This document shows positions 8,499 through 63,200 of a stretch of 64,000 bases of DNA, in pieces. Within the stretch, counting starts at the first letter, position 1; every line of letters starts with the position of its first letter. Both the position numbers and the translations under genes were made by a program. Source of the DNA: Parachlamydiales bacterium (GTDB lineage: Bacteria > Chlamydiota > Chlamydiia > Chlamydiales > Rhabdochlamydiaceae); the NCBI GenBank assembly GCA_963705295.1, contig OY970065.1, forward strand, positions 1,696,001 through 1,760,000, given 5' to 3'. Under the pieces are notes generated by a model. It was not told the DNA's origin. It made no database searches and was given only the letters and a program-made list of their open reading frames with translations.

Positions 8499-9662
8499 AT
8501 GGGCGAAAAGTTCTCGGATCTTCGAGGGACAGACGAGAAAGACCTTCCACCCCTCACGCATTTCCATCCCCTCGATGAAGCGTCCGATTTTCACGATCCG
8601 TACTCGGACCTCAATCTCTTCCTAACCCGCCAGATCAAAGAAGAATTTAAAGAGACAGGAGTAAAAAAATGGTCGATCTATCTGCAGGAAAAACTGATTA
8701 CCAAAATCGGCCCTGAATTCCGAAAAAAATTTCCCCATTACCGCCTCGGAGTCGCCGCGCTAAAAAAAGTCTGGGAAAAAATCGCCTATTATTCTCAAAC
8801 CTTCGAAAGTCAAAAAGAAGCGTTAACACCCGATGGTCACCTGGATTTACATTTTCTCATCCGAGAAAATCTCAAACAATTTTTCAAAAACAAAAAAAAA
8901 TTCCCGTTCCATCCCTACTTACTCGCCCAACAAGTTGCCCTCAAAATCAGCGAATGTCTTGCCGCCTACGACGGAATCCGCCCCATGCTCCAACATATGA
9001 CAAAACTCATCTGGGCCGTAGAAAGACACCTCATTCCGCCGCAACAAATCCCCGCCCTCGCCAATCCGTACGAAGAGTGCGACTCCCTCGATAAACTCAT
9101 CTTAAAATTCATGCTCGAAGCCCTCGGAAAAAATCCCCAGCTATCCCAGGAAGAACTCCAGAGACAAGTCAGACTTACCCTCCAATCTCTCGATGCGGTA
9201 GATGAAGAAACCATCCACATCCTCATCGACAACCCTCATCTCTCCCCCATCCAAGCTTTCGAAACCGCCTCCCTCTTCTTCAAAAAAGCCGCCGCCCTCG
9301 TCCAATCCTCCAACTGGGTCGAAATCGAACACAAAATCACCCTCTGGACGATCCAAGGCGACCTTGTCTACCGCCTCATTCGCATAGAGCGAAACCCCCT
9401 CCTCGACCTCATCACCTCCCACGAAAGCCGTGACATTACCCAACTCTATATTTCCCTCTATCCTTCCCTCACTCCCTTCGCTCCCTCCATCTCCTCCCGT
9501 GTCACCATCCTCACCCGGTATGCTTGGTACTCCCTCCTCTCCTCTCCGGAACAATCGACCTTCGATCGCTTCCTCGAATGGCATCAATCTCAAGGCCTCT
9601 CAACTTCCCAAATCGAAGACCTTTGCAAAAGCCAGCTCCCTCTACTTCCCTCTGGCTTCTAA
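8499..9662 (+). CDS. hypothetical protein (387 aa)
   Basis: Long ORF divergent from ssb; 3' half strongly C-rich at synonymous sites. Confidence 0.8.
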   Translation: MGEKFSDLRGTDEKDLPPLTHFHPLDEASDFHDPYSDLNLFLTRQIKEEFKETGVKKWSIYLQEKLITKIGPEFRKKFPHYRLGVAALKKVWEKIAYYSQTFESQKEALTPDGHLDLHFLIRENLKQFFKNKKKFPFHPYLLAQQVALKISECLAAYDGIRPMLQHMTKLIWAVERHLIPPQQIPALANPYEECDSLDKLILKFMLEALGKNPQLSQEELQRQVRLTLQSLDAVDEETIHILIDNPHLSPIQAFETASLFFKKAAALVQSSNWVEIEHKITLWTIQGDLVYRLIRIERNPLLDLITSHESRDITQLYISLYPSLTPFAPSISSRVTILTRYAWYSLLSSPEQSTFDRFLEWHQSQGLSTSQIEDLCKSQLPLLPSGF

Positions 9663-9666
9663 AAAA

Positions 9667-9715
9667 TGGAGTTGCAAACTCCAAAAATTGTGTTAAAATG
9701 GAGTTTTCAACTCCA
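9667..9715 (+). promoter_or_regulatory. tandem palindromic operator pair overlapping a putative promoter
   Basis: TGGAGTTGCAAACTCCA (9667-9683) and TGGAGTTTTCAACTCCA (9699-9715); TTGCAA at 9672 and TAAAAT at 9694. Confidence 0.7.
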
Positions 9716-9728
9716 AAAATAGGAATTT

Positions 9729-59294: not shown

Positions 59295-60286
59295 ATCATC
59301 TCTTGGACTTTTTTCCCTTTCCATAATTTGAAATAACTATTCTCAGTCATCACGCTTCTTTGATGTGCGCGGTCAAGACATAAGATCCCTTGAACATGGT
59401 CGATTTCGTGTTGCAAGATGCGGGCATACCACCCTTTTGCATGGATCACAACAGGCTCCGCCCTCTCATTCAAACATTCCACTCTTACAGATCTGGCCCT
59501 AGGAACGATCCCTATCAGAACAGGGATACTCAAGCATCCTTCCACAAATTCGGTGACCTCGGTCCCTTCGAAAGTGAGTTTAGGATTAATAATGACATGA
59601 AATGGAACCGGGTTCCGTTCTCTTTCGGCAATTTGCTCAGGAGTTAGGTGGCTATGGTCCATATCTTCGATGACAATCACTTGCACCGATTTCCCAATTT
59701 GAGGAGCAGCAAGGCCTGCACCAGGCGCTTCCCGCATGGTGATTTTCATTGTTTCGATCAGTTCTTGGAACTCTGGGCTTAAAATCTCCTCCTTCGTGAG
59801 TGGGCGCGCTGGTTTGCGGAGCACCGGATCACCCATTTCGACAATGTCGAGTTTACACGCCTTGGAAGCCTGCTCGTGCTTTGCATAAACAATCTTCGAT
59901 TCTACGATCGCATGGAAAGGGATAGATCCGTCATAGAGATGATAATATTTAGAACTACCACCCGGATTTGCTTCGTAAACCAATTTCCCTGGCAGCTTAT
60001 CCGTATCCACTTTCAGAATGACAAATTGCGGCACATCCGACCAATATTTTGAGACAATCCTCTCCACCTGGTCATCTCTAGAAAAATGGATAAATGCGTC
60101 ATCTTCGGCAGAAAGATAGACGGAAGGTCTACTTACCGTCGCTTGCCAAAGACGTTGAGATAAAATCTTATATAAATACTTCGGAGCAGTCTCCATCGTT
60201 TCATTCCCTCGCAAAGAGATTGAAAATAGAATCAAAATTCCACTGAGAAAAATTTTAATCACATAGTAGTCTCTTGGTCTGTCCAT
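59288..60286 (-). CDS. def: DUF952 domain-peptide deformylase fusion, possibly with an N-terminal signal
   Basis: LYKIL...DAFIHFS...LVYE...YYHLYDG (DUF952), then GAGLAAPQIG, EGCLS, QHEIDH PDF motifs; start uncertain (60286/60262/60196). Confidence 0.88.
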   Translation of the reverse strand: MDRPRDYYVIKIFLSGILILFSISLRGNETMETAPKYLYKILSQRLWQATVSRPSVYLSAEDDAFIHFSRDDQVERIVSKYWSDVPQFVILKVDTDKLPGKLVYEANPGGSSKYYHLYDGSIPFHAIVESKIVYAKHEQASKACKLDIVEMGDPVLRKPARPLTKEEILSPEFQELIETMKITMREAPGAGLAAPQIGKSVQVIVIEDMDHSHLTPEQIAERERNPVPFHVIINPKLTFEGTEVTEFVEGCLSIPVLIGIVPRARSVRVECLNERAEPVVIHAKGWYARILQHEIDHVQGILCLDRAHQRSVMTENSYFKLWKGKKVQEMIQ

Positions 60287-60290
60287 CTTT

Positions 60291-63200
60291 CTAATCTTGG
60301 AAACTGAAAGCCAGGACGTCTTCGTCGGTTTCCTCGAGGTACTTCTTGACCCTTTGTTGGAAGTCTTGGAAGCCTGTTCCGCCAGGGATGATGTGTCCCA
60401 TGATGACGTTCTCTTTGAAATCGAGGAGGTAGTCGGTTTTACCTGCGCAGGCCGCTTCGGTGAGGACACGGGTTGTCTCTTGGAAGGAGGCCGCCGAGAT
60501 AAACGACTCGGTGCCAAGGGAGGCTTTGGTGATCCCGAGGAGAACAGGAGCTGCTTGGGCTGGCTTTCCGCCTTCTTCGATCACTCTTGCGGTTTTGCGC
60601 ATGGAAATGCTTTCTTATCGACCTCTTCGCCATAGAGGAAGGTCGTATCGCCTGGATCGGTGACGCGCACTTTCTTCAGCATCTGGCGGACGATGATTTC
60701 AATGTGCTTGTCGTTGATGTCCACCCCTTGCAGGCGGTAGACTTCTTGAACTTGGTTCACGAGGTACTTCTGAAGTTCGCGGACGCCGCAGATCTCAAGA
60801 ATCTCGTGCGGGATGACAAGGCCATCGGTCAGCTGCTGTCCTTTGATGACGATGGTCGCCGCTTTGGACGATCAAGTGCTTGGTGAGAGGAATGAGGTGC
60901 TCTTCTTCCATGCCTGATTACTTCATCGCGCACAACCACAATCCGCTTGTTCTTCTGAACGCCGCGGAAGTCGACGACACCATCGATTTTGGCAATTTCA
61001 GCAGAATCTTTCGGCTTGCGCGCTTCAAAGAGCTCGGCAACGCGCGGCAGACCGCCGGTGATATCCTTCGTTTTGATCGCGCCGCGTGGCAGACGAGCAA
61101 GCAGCATACCTGCTGACGACATATTGTCCTTCTTGCAACCGAAATGAACGGCGCCTGATGGAATCGCATAGGTACCGACGAGTTCGTTGAACTGCTTTGT
61201 CGGCATAGATCACGATCTGCGGATGGAGTTCGCCGCGGTGCTGCTTCACAATCAGCTCGGTCTGACCTGTCTGCTTATTGACTTCTCGCTGAGTCGAGAT
61301 CCCTTCAACGAGGTCTTCATATTTGACATAACCAGGGCGTTCGCAAATGATCGGAATGTTGTGCTGTTCCCACTCAGCGATCTTTGGTTCGCTTCTTGAC
61401 TTTAGCTCCATCGGCAAGAAGAATCTTGTTCCAAGCTCAATGTTGAAGGTTTGAAGAGGTTCAATCGATTTGGTGCTGAGGAGTTTTTTATACTCTTCAA
61501 GAGTGCGTCCTTCATCGCGGACGATATGGAGCGTGCCGTTTTTATTCAGAGCAAGCCAATGCCCTTCTTCGTTTTGAACGGTGCGCAGATCCATGTAGAC
61601 CAGAATACCTTCATGTTCCGATAACAAGTTCAGGGCTTAAGCGCTGCAGAAGCAATACCGCCCAAGTGGAACGTTCTCATCGTGAGCTGCGTTCCAGGTT
61701 CACCGATCGACTGGGCTGCAATAATCCCGACAGCTTCTCCCAGGCTGACGAGACTTGCCATTGGCCAGGTTGAGTCCATAGCATTTGCGCAGACTCCCCG
61801 CCGCGTTTCGCAGGTGAGTGCAGAACGGATTCTGACGCTTTCAATACCGGCATCATCGATCGCTTCGGCTTGAAGCACAGTGAGCATATCGCCTGCTTTT
61901 GCAAGAATTTTGTGCTATCGCCAGGCAGATAGATATCTTCGCAAACGGTACGTCCAAAAATACGGTCTTTCAGAGGAAGAAGTTCTTCTTGACCTTGCTT
62001 AATCGCAGAGACTTCAATGCCATTGAGCGTTCCGCAATCATCTTCAGTGATGATCACATCTTGGCAACGTCGACGAGACGGCGTGTCAAGTAACCGGAGT
62101 CGGCCGTTTTAAGGCGGTATCGGCAAGACCTTTACGGGCTCCGTGAGAAGAGATGAAGTATTCGAGAACCGTCAATCCTTCGCGGAAGTTCGAGGTGATC
62201 GGAGATTCAATAATCTCGCCAGAAGGTTTCGCCATCAAGCCGCGGAGAGCTCCGAGCTGTTTAACCTGAGATTTGTTACCACGAGCTCCGGAATCCATCA
62301 TCAGATAGAGAGGATTCAGTTCGCCATCGTTCATGTTCGCTGATCAGTTTGAACAGTTCTTCAGAAAGCTTATCGGAAACTTCTGTCCAAATACTAATGA
62401 TCTTAGAATTTCTTTCCCCATCGGTGATAATCCCATCTTCGTATTGCTTTTTCACAACTTCGATCCGCTTGTAGCGCTTCTTCGAGAATCTTTTGCTTTG
62501 TTGGCAGGAACTCTGACATCGCACACACCCATGGAGAGAGCCGCTTTCGTCGCTTCGGCAAATCCGAGGTTTTTCAAGTTGTCCAAGAAGCGAACAGTCG
62601 CTTCAAGGCCTACTTTTTATAGCACTTCAAGACGAGCTCGCTCATTTTCTTCTTAGGAAAGCATAGTTTTGGAAGCCGAGTTCTTTAGGAACGATCGTAT
62701 TGAAGAGGACGCGTCCTGGTGTCGTTTCAATGATGCCATCTTCGAGTACGCAGCTTTGATCTTTTCATGAATGCGAAGACCGCGTCCATAGATCGTCGCG
62801 ACTTTCTCTTCTTGCTTTCCTTTTCATACCAGTTATAGCTTCCGCTGGCATGGAGAGCCAAGAGCACTTCTTCCGTATTGCGGAAGACTTTCGTCTTTTG
62901 ACCATGCTCTTCAGGGATATAAAGCGGATCGAACATCAGATAATAAAGACCCAAAGTCATATCCTGAGAAGGAACAGCAACCGGTTTTCCGGAAGAAGGA
63001 AGAAGATGTTGTCCGGCGCCATCATCAGCAGTTTTGCTTCGAGCTGAGCTTCGATGGAAAGAGGGACGTAAACGGCCATCTGGTCACCGTCAAAGTCGGC
63101 GTTAAACGCTGCACAGACGAGAGGATGGATCCGGATCGCTTTACCTTCGATCAAGACAGGCTCAAACGCCTGGATACCCAAGACGGTGAAGCGTCGGCGC

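Follow-up and report, generated by a model that had tools for sequence, protein, structure and literature searches.

The window analysed here is a stretch of 64,000 nucleotides (nt) from a Parachlamydiales bacterium of the Rhabdochlamydiaceae (assembly GCA_963705295.1), corresponding to positions 1,696,001-1,760,000 of the single 2,131,910-base contig OY970065.1 of a genome with 43.8% GC, designated G000. The features under study are patches of coding DNA in which the third codon position is enriched in C toward the 3' ends of genes (C-rich tails) or in G toward the 5' ends (G-rich heads), with codons ending in C and G written as C3 and G3. The original prediction had noticed that the + strand changes from C/A-rich to G/T-rich at the borders of accessory gene patches between 9200 and 60600, and had read the change as a polar mutational footprint of repeated cassette exchange at fixed hotspots. 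Our results suggested that the skew resembles Rho loading sites built into the ends of transcription units more than scars of gene-cassette exchange. The gene content of the window, with giant ankyrin- and Sel1-repeat genes, pot and fab operons, a transaldolase gene and rpoC, fits an intracellular lifestyle. The cumulative GC skew of the genome placed the origin near 317 kilobases (kb) and the terminus near 1352 kb, so that the + strand of the window is the lagging strand with a background excess of C.

Genes were called with our own open reading frame (ORF) caller, which scores amino-acid composition only and is hence blind to third positions (1704 ORFs, 92% coverage), and transcription units were inferred from gene orientation and spacing only. 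A switch was defined as C minus G (C-G) on the + strand in the 240-nt flanks of a boundary, left minus right, and an extreme tail as C3-G3 of at least 20 within 60 codons. A gene was called shared when it had a tblastn match in the congener G007 with at least 40% coverage and at least 30% identity (753 of the 1704 genes), and "accessory" was defined against this one reduced congener. The comparison sequences were the whole 1.74-megabase contig of G007, 300 kb of G004, 100 kb of G006 and 200 kb each of G003 and G002, all congeners, with 200 kb of Escherichia coli K-12 as the outside control.

Eight 60-nt lines had been counted by hand, and all eight C:G counts proved exact. The line 9421-9480 (24:5) lies in the strongest C-rich tail, at 9210-9515 on the + strand (102 codons, C3 share 0.70, G3 share 0.04, score 48.9), within ORF 8499-9662, which has no Pfam family and no qualifying match in G007; the next gene is located 66 nt downstream on the same strand. 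In the spacer after this tail (9663-9728), a short hairpin (GGAGTT-loop-AACTCC) flanked by A runs was seen twice by eye, and the two may represent small repeats or elements resembling two-way terminators. The line 12001-12060 (20:10) falls in the G-rich head, at 11888-12127 on the - strand, of ORF 11666-12127, where the + strand is C-rich. The first two 40-codon bins of this ORF contained 12 and 19 G3 versus 3 and 6 C3, C3-G3 over the first 60 codons was -19, and the upstream gap is 19 nt, hence the gene is not unit-first by the spacing rule. The first "accessory patch", at 12147-17874 on the - strand, consists of genes without a G007 match (Sel1, AlaX-like, 2OG oxygenase, LysE and AbiEii-like) and is bordered by two G-rich gene heads. 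To its right, the head at 17974-18093 (+), which holds the line 18061-18120 (6:18), belongs to the conserved ORF 17974-19059, divergent from the AbiEii-like gene, with 19 G3 and 6 C3 in the first 40 codons and C3-G3 of -16 over the first 60. This ORF is the candidate for the gene that had been labelled PIN/TRAM, and no Pfam family was found in it at E<=1e-5.

The second "accessory patch", at 20229-37750 on the - strand, also lacks G007 matches, consists mostly of five giant Sel1- or ankyrin-repeat genes and is bordered by two C-rich gene tails. To its left, the tail at 19822-20208 (+; 129 codons, C3 share 0.58, G3 share 0.05) holds the line 20161-20220 (24:7). It is part of ORF 19432-20232, the product of which ends in ...YVF, and C3 per 40 codons climbs along this ORF from 5 through 9, 11, 18 and 19 to 26; the gene is convergent with a Sel1-repeat gene of 1417 residues. 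To the right of the patch, the tail at 38223-38462 (-) of the conserved gene 38211-39182 makes the + strand G-rich and holds the line 38341-38400 (10:28), the last 80 codons of the gene containing 62 C3 and 3 G3. The potD-like gene 42750-43829, which converges on ORF 43831-44538 (without a G007 match), has a moderately C-rich tail at 43321-43800 (+); the lines beginning at 43321, 43621 and 43741 had C-G of +13, +13 and +14, and C3-G3 over the last 60 codons was +11. The fabH gene (46528-47517; FabH domains by Pfam) carries a G-rich head at 47113-47442 (-; 110 codons, G3 share 0.57, C3 share 0.11), which renders the + strand C-rich and holds the line 47281-47340 (27:10), and its upstream neighbour, 47583-48353, has no match in relatives.

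The strongest switch of the window, 95 (C-G 57 on the left and -38 on the right), is located at a repeated intergenic element, 51260-51332 (no strand assigned), between the convergent transaldolase and ABC-2 genes. On the left, the transaldolase gene 50309-51265 (Pfam TAL_FSA) carries a C-rich tail at 51011-51244 (+; 78 codons, C3 share 0.63, G3 share 0.06), which holds the line 51121-51180 (24:7), and its DNA match to relatives extends to the gene end. On the right, the ABC-2 permease gene 51328-52110 (Pfam ABC2_membrane) carries a C-rich tail at 51376-51588 (-; 71 codons, C3 share 0.70, G3 share 0.08), which makes the + strand G-rich and holds the line 51361-51420 (8:21). Copies of the element occur in G000 and in the congener G005, and the stretch containing it had 13 other matches in G000, some overlapping on both strands. 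No inverted repeats linking the left and right flanks at 51 kb were found.

Across the 35,531 60-nt lines of the genome, C-G had a standard deviation of 6.4, and the claimed span of 857 lines contained 91 lines with C-G of at least 10 and 16 with G-C of at least 12. Because of this wide spread, the lines 12001-12060 (+10), 18061-18120 (-12) and 51361-51420 (-13) were individually unremarkable. The skewed runs behind the hand-counted lines were nevertheless confirmed as real, though single 60-nt lines are weak evidence. Genome-wide, 66 C third-position patches reached a score of at least 25 compared with 16.4 in within-gene shuffles, and 24 reached at least 45 compared with 3.0; the median patch had 62 codons with C3 of 0.63 and G3 of 0.05. 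The original prediction had named position within the gene as the explanation that would speak against its own, and position in the gene and in the transcription unit was found to account for the sign of every line: judged from the gene coordinates, the sign was the one expected from G-rich heads and C-rich tails in 8/8 cases. Two of these lines, 12001-12060 and 47281-47340, lie in gene heads with upstream gaps of 19 and 65 nt, which the spacing rule does not class as unit-first.

Analysis of the 1334 ORFs of at least 200 residues showed that the third-position bias runs along genes in a fixed order, C3/G3 being 0.199/0.223 in the first 60 codons, 0.238/0.191 in mid-gene and 0.274/0.171 in the last 60. 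The tail depended on the context of the gene in its unit. The last 60 codons had C3/G3 of 0.294/0.166 when the downstream gene was convergent (n=500) and 0.30-0.31/0.15-0.16 when it was on the same strand at least 40 nt away (n=260), whereas operon-internal genes had no C-rich tail (0.242/0.182, n=574). The tail effect increased stepwise with the downstream gap, and the G-rich head was stronger in unit-first genes. Head and tail each extended over about 500 nt (about 170 codons), with a mid-gene plateau in long genes, and the strength of the tail was independent of gene length. The pattern was present in 11/11 blocks of 200 kb, and extreme tails were found in 14.8% of terminal and 3.8% of internal genes. 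In the window, the DUF948 gene 55891-56229 (112 codons) breaks the rule of the G-rich head, since it is C3-rich from its start, with C3-G3 of +20 over codons 1-60; a gene this short may lie entirely within reach of the tail effect.

This anatomy provides a simple geometric reason for C-to-G switches at gene boundaries in any orientation. Reverse-complementing flips both the gene direction and the letters, so that every unit boundary reads C-rich and then G-rich on the + strand. Consistently, 73% of the 770 unit boundaries had a positive switch (p=1e-51), with means of +18.3, +11.5, +18.7 and +15.1 in the four boundary orientations, while the 592 operon-internal junctions were positive in 48% (mean +2.0) and 5000 random points had a mean of +0.5. 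The skew had been described as affecting 5' and 3' gene ends alike, which was borne out, and as not following gene direction, which was not: the sign follows the coding strand and the position in the gene, and the apparent indifference to direction arises because a sense-strand G-rich head and C-rich tail are symmetric under reverse complement. The A/T half of the described change was not specific to these sites, as the A-T switch was nearly as large at operon-internal junctions (7.9) as at unit boundaries (8.6).

The switches are very probably not units centred on the junction, each flank being instead a separate silent-site feature of its own gene. The strengths of the two flanks of a boundary were uncorrelated (r=0.04 for tail/tail, -0.02 for head/head and 0.006 for tail/head), and both tails were extreme in 4 of 197 convergent pairs compared with 3.6 expected. 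Skew was limited to coding DNA, with C about equal to G in the 150 nt before starts and in the DNA past stop codons (C/G of 1.0-1.07 in the latter), and C3 in extreme tails halved within the final 10 codons (from about 0.62 to 0.31), the skew collapsing across the last 30 nt. With uncorrelated flanks, unskewed intergenic DNA and tails that fade before the stop, a process acting at the junction itself was not supported. The likeness to the replication GC skew, which changes sign at the origin, is confined to the C-to-G change on one strand; G000 has an ordinary skew of this kind as well. The boundary skew differs in its scale of about 0.5 kb, in being limited to third codon positions of coding DNA, and in recurring at most of the 770 unit boundaries with an amplitude alike on both replication strands (head-tail gradient of 0.120 in leading-strand and 0.135 in lagging-strand genes). 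A replication-type strand skew was ruled out by this near-equal gradient together with the unskewed intergenic DNA, and replication-transcription collisions were ruled out by the near-equal gradient.

The base change was mainly an exchange between G and C. At four-fold sites in head, middle and tail, C was 0.234, 0.289 and 0.386 and G was 0.248, 0.204 and 0.154, while A and T shifted by 0.04 or less. The claim of a bias residing in synonymous sites and fading within about 0.5 kb was upheld, since codon-position counts, four-fold sites and tail length agreed. The proposed polar G>A/T>C change did not fit, as four-fold sites showed C +0.10 and G -0.05 with A and T nearly flat. The coding-strand purine share was about 0.495 far from the stop, with no overall purine excess. 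In 16/16 codon families, C-ending codons were gained in tails and lost in heads, and G-ending codons went down in tails and up in heads in 8/8 four-fold families. First codon positions shifted slightly in the same way (C1 from 0.225 to 0.242). Position-dependent codon bias within genes is known (abstract of PMC4069614), and a gradient of translational codon optimisation for speed or accuracy could be considered on that ground; with all families moving alike whatever their tRNA, the opposite course of G-ending codons in heads and tails, and an effect that depends on operon context and not on the gene itself, this explanation has almost nothing left to recommend it. At orthologous codons encoding the same amino acid, C3 rose toward the stop from 0.255 through 0.308 to 0.358 in G000 and stayed flat at 0.18-0.19 in G007. 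Replacement of the tails by foreign sequence was ruled out, as the G007 alignments extended to the C-terminus in 94% of extreme genes and 93% of others.

A functionless, transcription-linked mutational asymmetry that arose in this lineage, perhaps from altered repair, and that damaged one strand near promoters (in R-loops, for instance) and the other near unit ends, would account for the anchoring of the pattern on the inferred transcription units and for its presence in one lineage despite a conserved Rho. The concerted movement of all 16 codon families and the slight shift of first positions are also what compositional pressure would produce. Skew is lacking, however, in the probable 5' leaders (-60 to -31) and past the stop, in DNA that is presumably transcribed. 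An exchange between G and C that hardly touches A and T is unlike deamination, the sign reverses from head to tail with a plateau between, and the tails are patchy, with about 15% of terminal genes extreme. No mechanism is known to us by which the template strand would be exposed only over the final 500 nt of a unit, and we consider this asymmetry rather improbable as the source of the skew.

The coincidence of switches with variable loci, which the original prediction had proposed to examine, was found genome-wide. The mean switch was 20.8 at boundaries between a shared and an unmatched gene, 10.3 at syntenic boundaries between shared genes (p=5e-4) and 12.2 between unmatched genes, and the shared|unmatched class made up 58% of the top-decile switches compared with 40% of all boundaries. 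In these mixed boundaries the shared side carried 16.9 and the unmatched side 3.9 C-G per 240 nt. Gene-end tests agreed, with shared-gene tails of 0.239 when facing an unmatched gene and 0.119 when facing a shared gene (p=4e-7), and heads behaved likewise; a regression that included mid-gene skew gave an interaction of +0.046 (t=3.0). Repeated elements were found downstream of 34 of 144 extreme tails and 12 of 144 controls, and ends bearing repeats had stronger tails (0.18-0.19 versus 0.124, p=0.005). Many same-strand shared|shared pairs may be co-transcribed and would then exaggerate the contrast, and in convergent, non-overlapping pairs with neighbours of at least 200 residues the difference was not significant (0.168 versus 0.223, p=0.42). 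The association with accessory genes thus holds statistically, yet it is modest, relies on one reference genome and is perhaps partly confounded.

Of the accessory-patch interpretation, then, the statistical association stood and the mechanism of a cassette-exchange footprint did not. Recombination or cassette exchange at fixed hotspots, marking the conserved flanks with a strand-polar footprint through single-strand deamination or error-prone repair synthesis, would explain why conserved ends facing unmatched genes are the most skewed, why repeats are commoner beyond extreme tails, why the gradients within genes are gradual and why the pattern is specific to one lineage. As at integration hotspots and genomic islands, the skew is greatest at borders between conserved and unmatched genes, and a repeat family lies at the strongest switch of the window. 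Unlike what such sites would imply, the two flanks do not co-vary, and the DNA nearest the junction, both intergenic and in the last codons of the tails, is the part without skew. Syntenic junctions between conserved genes have switches too, as do boundaries between two unmatched genes. The four-fold sites show a G/C swap and not G>A with T>C, the tails show no excess protein divergence (amino-acid identity to the orthologue of 0.618 in skewed tails versus 0.627 in the rest of the gene, with the C-termini aligned as often as in other genes), and the cleanest test, in convergent non-overlapping pairs, was the non-significant one, with "accessory" itself resting on a single reduced congener. No direct repeats bracketing the accessory blocks were found, apart from a 106-nt duplicate (37277-37382 and 60292-60397), and we know of no mechanism by which site-specific integration leaves a 500-nt strand-polar synonymous footprint. 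Hotspot recombination therefore appears unlikely as the cause.

The sequence properties of the tails point instead to selection on RNA linked to Rho. Rut sites have been described as C>G-biased, weakly structured regions of 60-90 nt (PMC12360218), and Rho as preferring C over G, many YC (pyrimidine-C) dimers and little structure (PMC12360218, PMC13613805); in Bacillus subtilis, fragments terminated by Rho are marked by an excess of C over more than 150 nt, and changing synonymous codons is enough to produce Rho termination (PMC13323073). In G000, 101 extreme tails of 150 nt each had (C-G)/(C+G) of 0.37 and 37.5 YC dimers compared with about 20 in control windows. Their minimum free energy of folding was -26.6 kcal/mol, compared with -39.3 expected from their 55% GC and -30.6 in controls (p=4e-5), and C exceeded G with little structure, as in rut sites. 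Heads had 12 YC dimers and a minimum free energy of -39.7. The genome encodes Rho (one PF07497 match, 119 bits, within a 443-residue ORF starting with ATG). Terminators with a hairpin plus T-run were rare in G000, at 6.3% of terminal and 2.9% of internal genes, and a comparison of this 6.3% with 12.2% in G007 and 13.0% in G004 is suggestive only.

On this basis, the C-rich tails would act as Rho loading (rut) sites just upstream of the unit end, and the G-rich heads would be their opposite, YC-poor and more folded, shielding the start of the message from premature Rho termination. E. coli-type Rho-dependent terminators are exemplified by lambda tR1 and trp t'. The tracts of G000 are like the "C>G bubbles" of such rut sites in their C>G bias, a doubled YC count that is in proportion to their C content, weak folding and location at the inferred unit ends. 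They differ in being written by synonymous choice in translated codons and in fading before the stop, and their Rho dependence is putative. A "hidden code" of Rho avoidance in Bacilli, which have runaway transcription, likewise places the preference of Rho at wobble positions, and the G-rich, YC-poor heads of G000 resemble a local form of it; the Bacilli bias (PMC13323073) covers whole genes and opposes purines to pyrimidines, while that of G000 is positional, opposes G to C and has opposite sign at the two unit ends. The listings of full-text literature searches contained no paper on C-rich synonymous tails at operon ends, the closest being PMC13323073 and PMC12360218.

The positional account and the Rho mechanism taken together seem to us as apt to be right as wrong, and Rho-linked selection on the RNA is, as a mechanism, put forward tentatively, at somewhat under even confidence. 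Several results weigh against it. Classical rut sites need ribosome-free RNA, and the tracts lie inside translated sequence, with 3' untranslated DNA that is not C-rich. The YC excess matched the C content, as the observed/expected ratios were 1.29 versus 1.25 for TC and 1.10 versus 1.09 for CC, and a YC-specific codon shift was rejected, since codons with a pyrimidine at position 2 did not shift consistently more than those with a purine. Intrinsic terminators did not complement the tails (0.144 in genes with a hairpin plus T-run, n=47, versus 0.138 without, p=0.30), and the strength of the tail was not related to the presence of any downstream hairpin (Spearman 0.06, p=0.10). An extreme tail marked only about 15% of terminal genes. 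Mid-gene skew was the strongest predictor of tail skew in the regression (beta 0.89), and the excess skew at conserved ends facing genes without a G007 match is not predicted by Rho loading. The gene calls, moreover, came from our own ORF caller and the units from spacing alone.

The restriction to one lineage weighs against the Rho account as well. With the same pipeline, terminal and operon-internal tails did not differ in G007, G004, G006, G003 or G002, nor in the 200 kb of E. coli K-12, a classic Rho user, which indicates that the gradient is not an artefact of the method and is lineage-specific. Extreme tails occurred in 0-2.4% of terminal genes of G007, G004 and G006; in G003 they occurred in 10.5% of terminal and 11.1% of internal genes, with no unit-end effect, and in G002 in 6.1% and 1.6%. 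Rho itself was present in 20/21 genomes searched, G000 included, and the proteins of G000 and G007 had 88% identity, including a stretch of the RNA-binding region without differences. Altered Rho specificity was ruled out by this conservation, and the Rho account leaves unexplained why the tails occur in one lineage. Tail-less relatives with a near-identical Rho would fit some other lineage-specific factor, and selection on RNA for 3'-end mRNA decay control, for a C-specific RNA-binding protein or for the suppression or handling of antisense transcripts would equally explain a skew that is limited to coding RNA, depends on unit context and leaves tails weakly and heads more strongly folded. 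No candidate for such a factor was identified, and the combination of C>G, YC richness and lack of structure is the known preference of Rho (PMC12360218 and PMC13613805); RNA-level selection without Rho is accordingly judged unlikely.

The association with accessory genes could be joined to the Rho reading if conserved genes lying beside fast-turnover DNA had been silently rewritten, in their last 100-170 codons or, at the opposite type of border, in their first codons, into Rho terminators and insulators contained in the gene. The codons of the conserved gene would then be the only place beside a turnover hotspot where a terminator can persist, and a fast-evolving transcription punctuation at synonymous sites would have been gained within about 30% nucleotide divergence while being absent from sister species. 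We regard this causal link as doubtful.

If the tails are Rho loading sites, termination could be written almost entirely by the choice of synonymous codons at the ends of operons, and such a termination code could arise in one species and be absent from its congeners. This would affect the reading of silent sites in estimates of synonymous divergence (dS), in codon-usage models and in the detection of horizontal transfer, and it would be relevant to the recoding of genes for expression in other hosts. Gene calling is also affected, as C-rich tails clear stop codons from one antisense frame, which then reads as a long "shadow" ORF with many Gly, Glu and Asp codons. Such ORFs were observed at 9141-9593 (-), 38310-38738 (+) and 50852-51241 (-). 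The composition-based caller chose 38310-38738 (+) over the true gene 38211-39182 (-), as tblastn revealed: the minus-strand ORF is the real gene because it aligns along its whole length with sequences of three congeners at 58-64% amino-acid identity, compared with 30-38% for the antisense ORF.

The giant repeat genes between 20229 and 35226 are arranged in tandem and encode a Sel1 protein of 1417 residues, ankyrin proteins of 758, 770 and 1110 residues, and a Sel1 protein of 889 residues with a PARP-like domain; 0/5 met the shared-gene filter against G007. They have common internal segments of 130-300 nt with 85-95% identity, about 2.4 and 3.4 kb apart, and this sharing, judged from the sequence, appears to indicate recent duplication or gene conversion. 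The 106-nt direct repeat mentioned above (83% identity between copies) comprises the 3' end of the unmatched ORF 37268-37750 and a 5' part of the DUF952/peptide-deformylase gene 59288-60517, and it may be one of the "gene-tail duplicates" of the original prediction. A segment at 49378-49521 had 75-91% identity in many congeners with unconserved flanks. A small RNA or regulatory element may lie there; no tRNA was found in a search of 49.38-49.52 kb.

The highly conserved rpoC gene on the - strand (60580-64000, continuing to about 65100) is split into at least nine reading-frame pieces. It is the sole copy in G000, as PF04997 and PF04998 matched nowhere else, and the intact rpoC protein of G007 switched among all three G000 frames by tblastn. 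Of the insertions and deletions relative to G007 in 3.2 kb, 35/37 were not multiples of three, and most were single-base insertions in G000 that were not at homopolymers. Since the giant ORFs in the neighbouring 15 kb are intact, the frameshifts in rpoC are likely a local assembly or polishing error.

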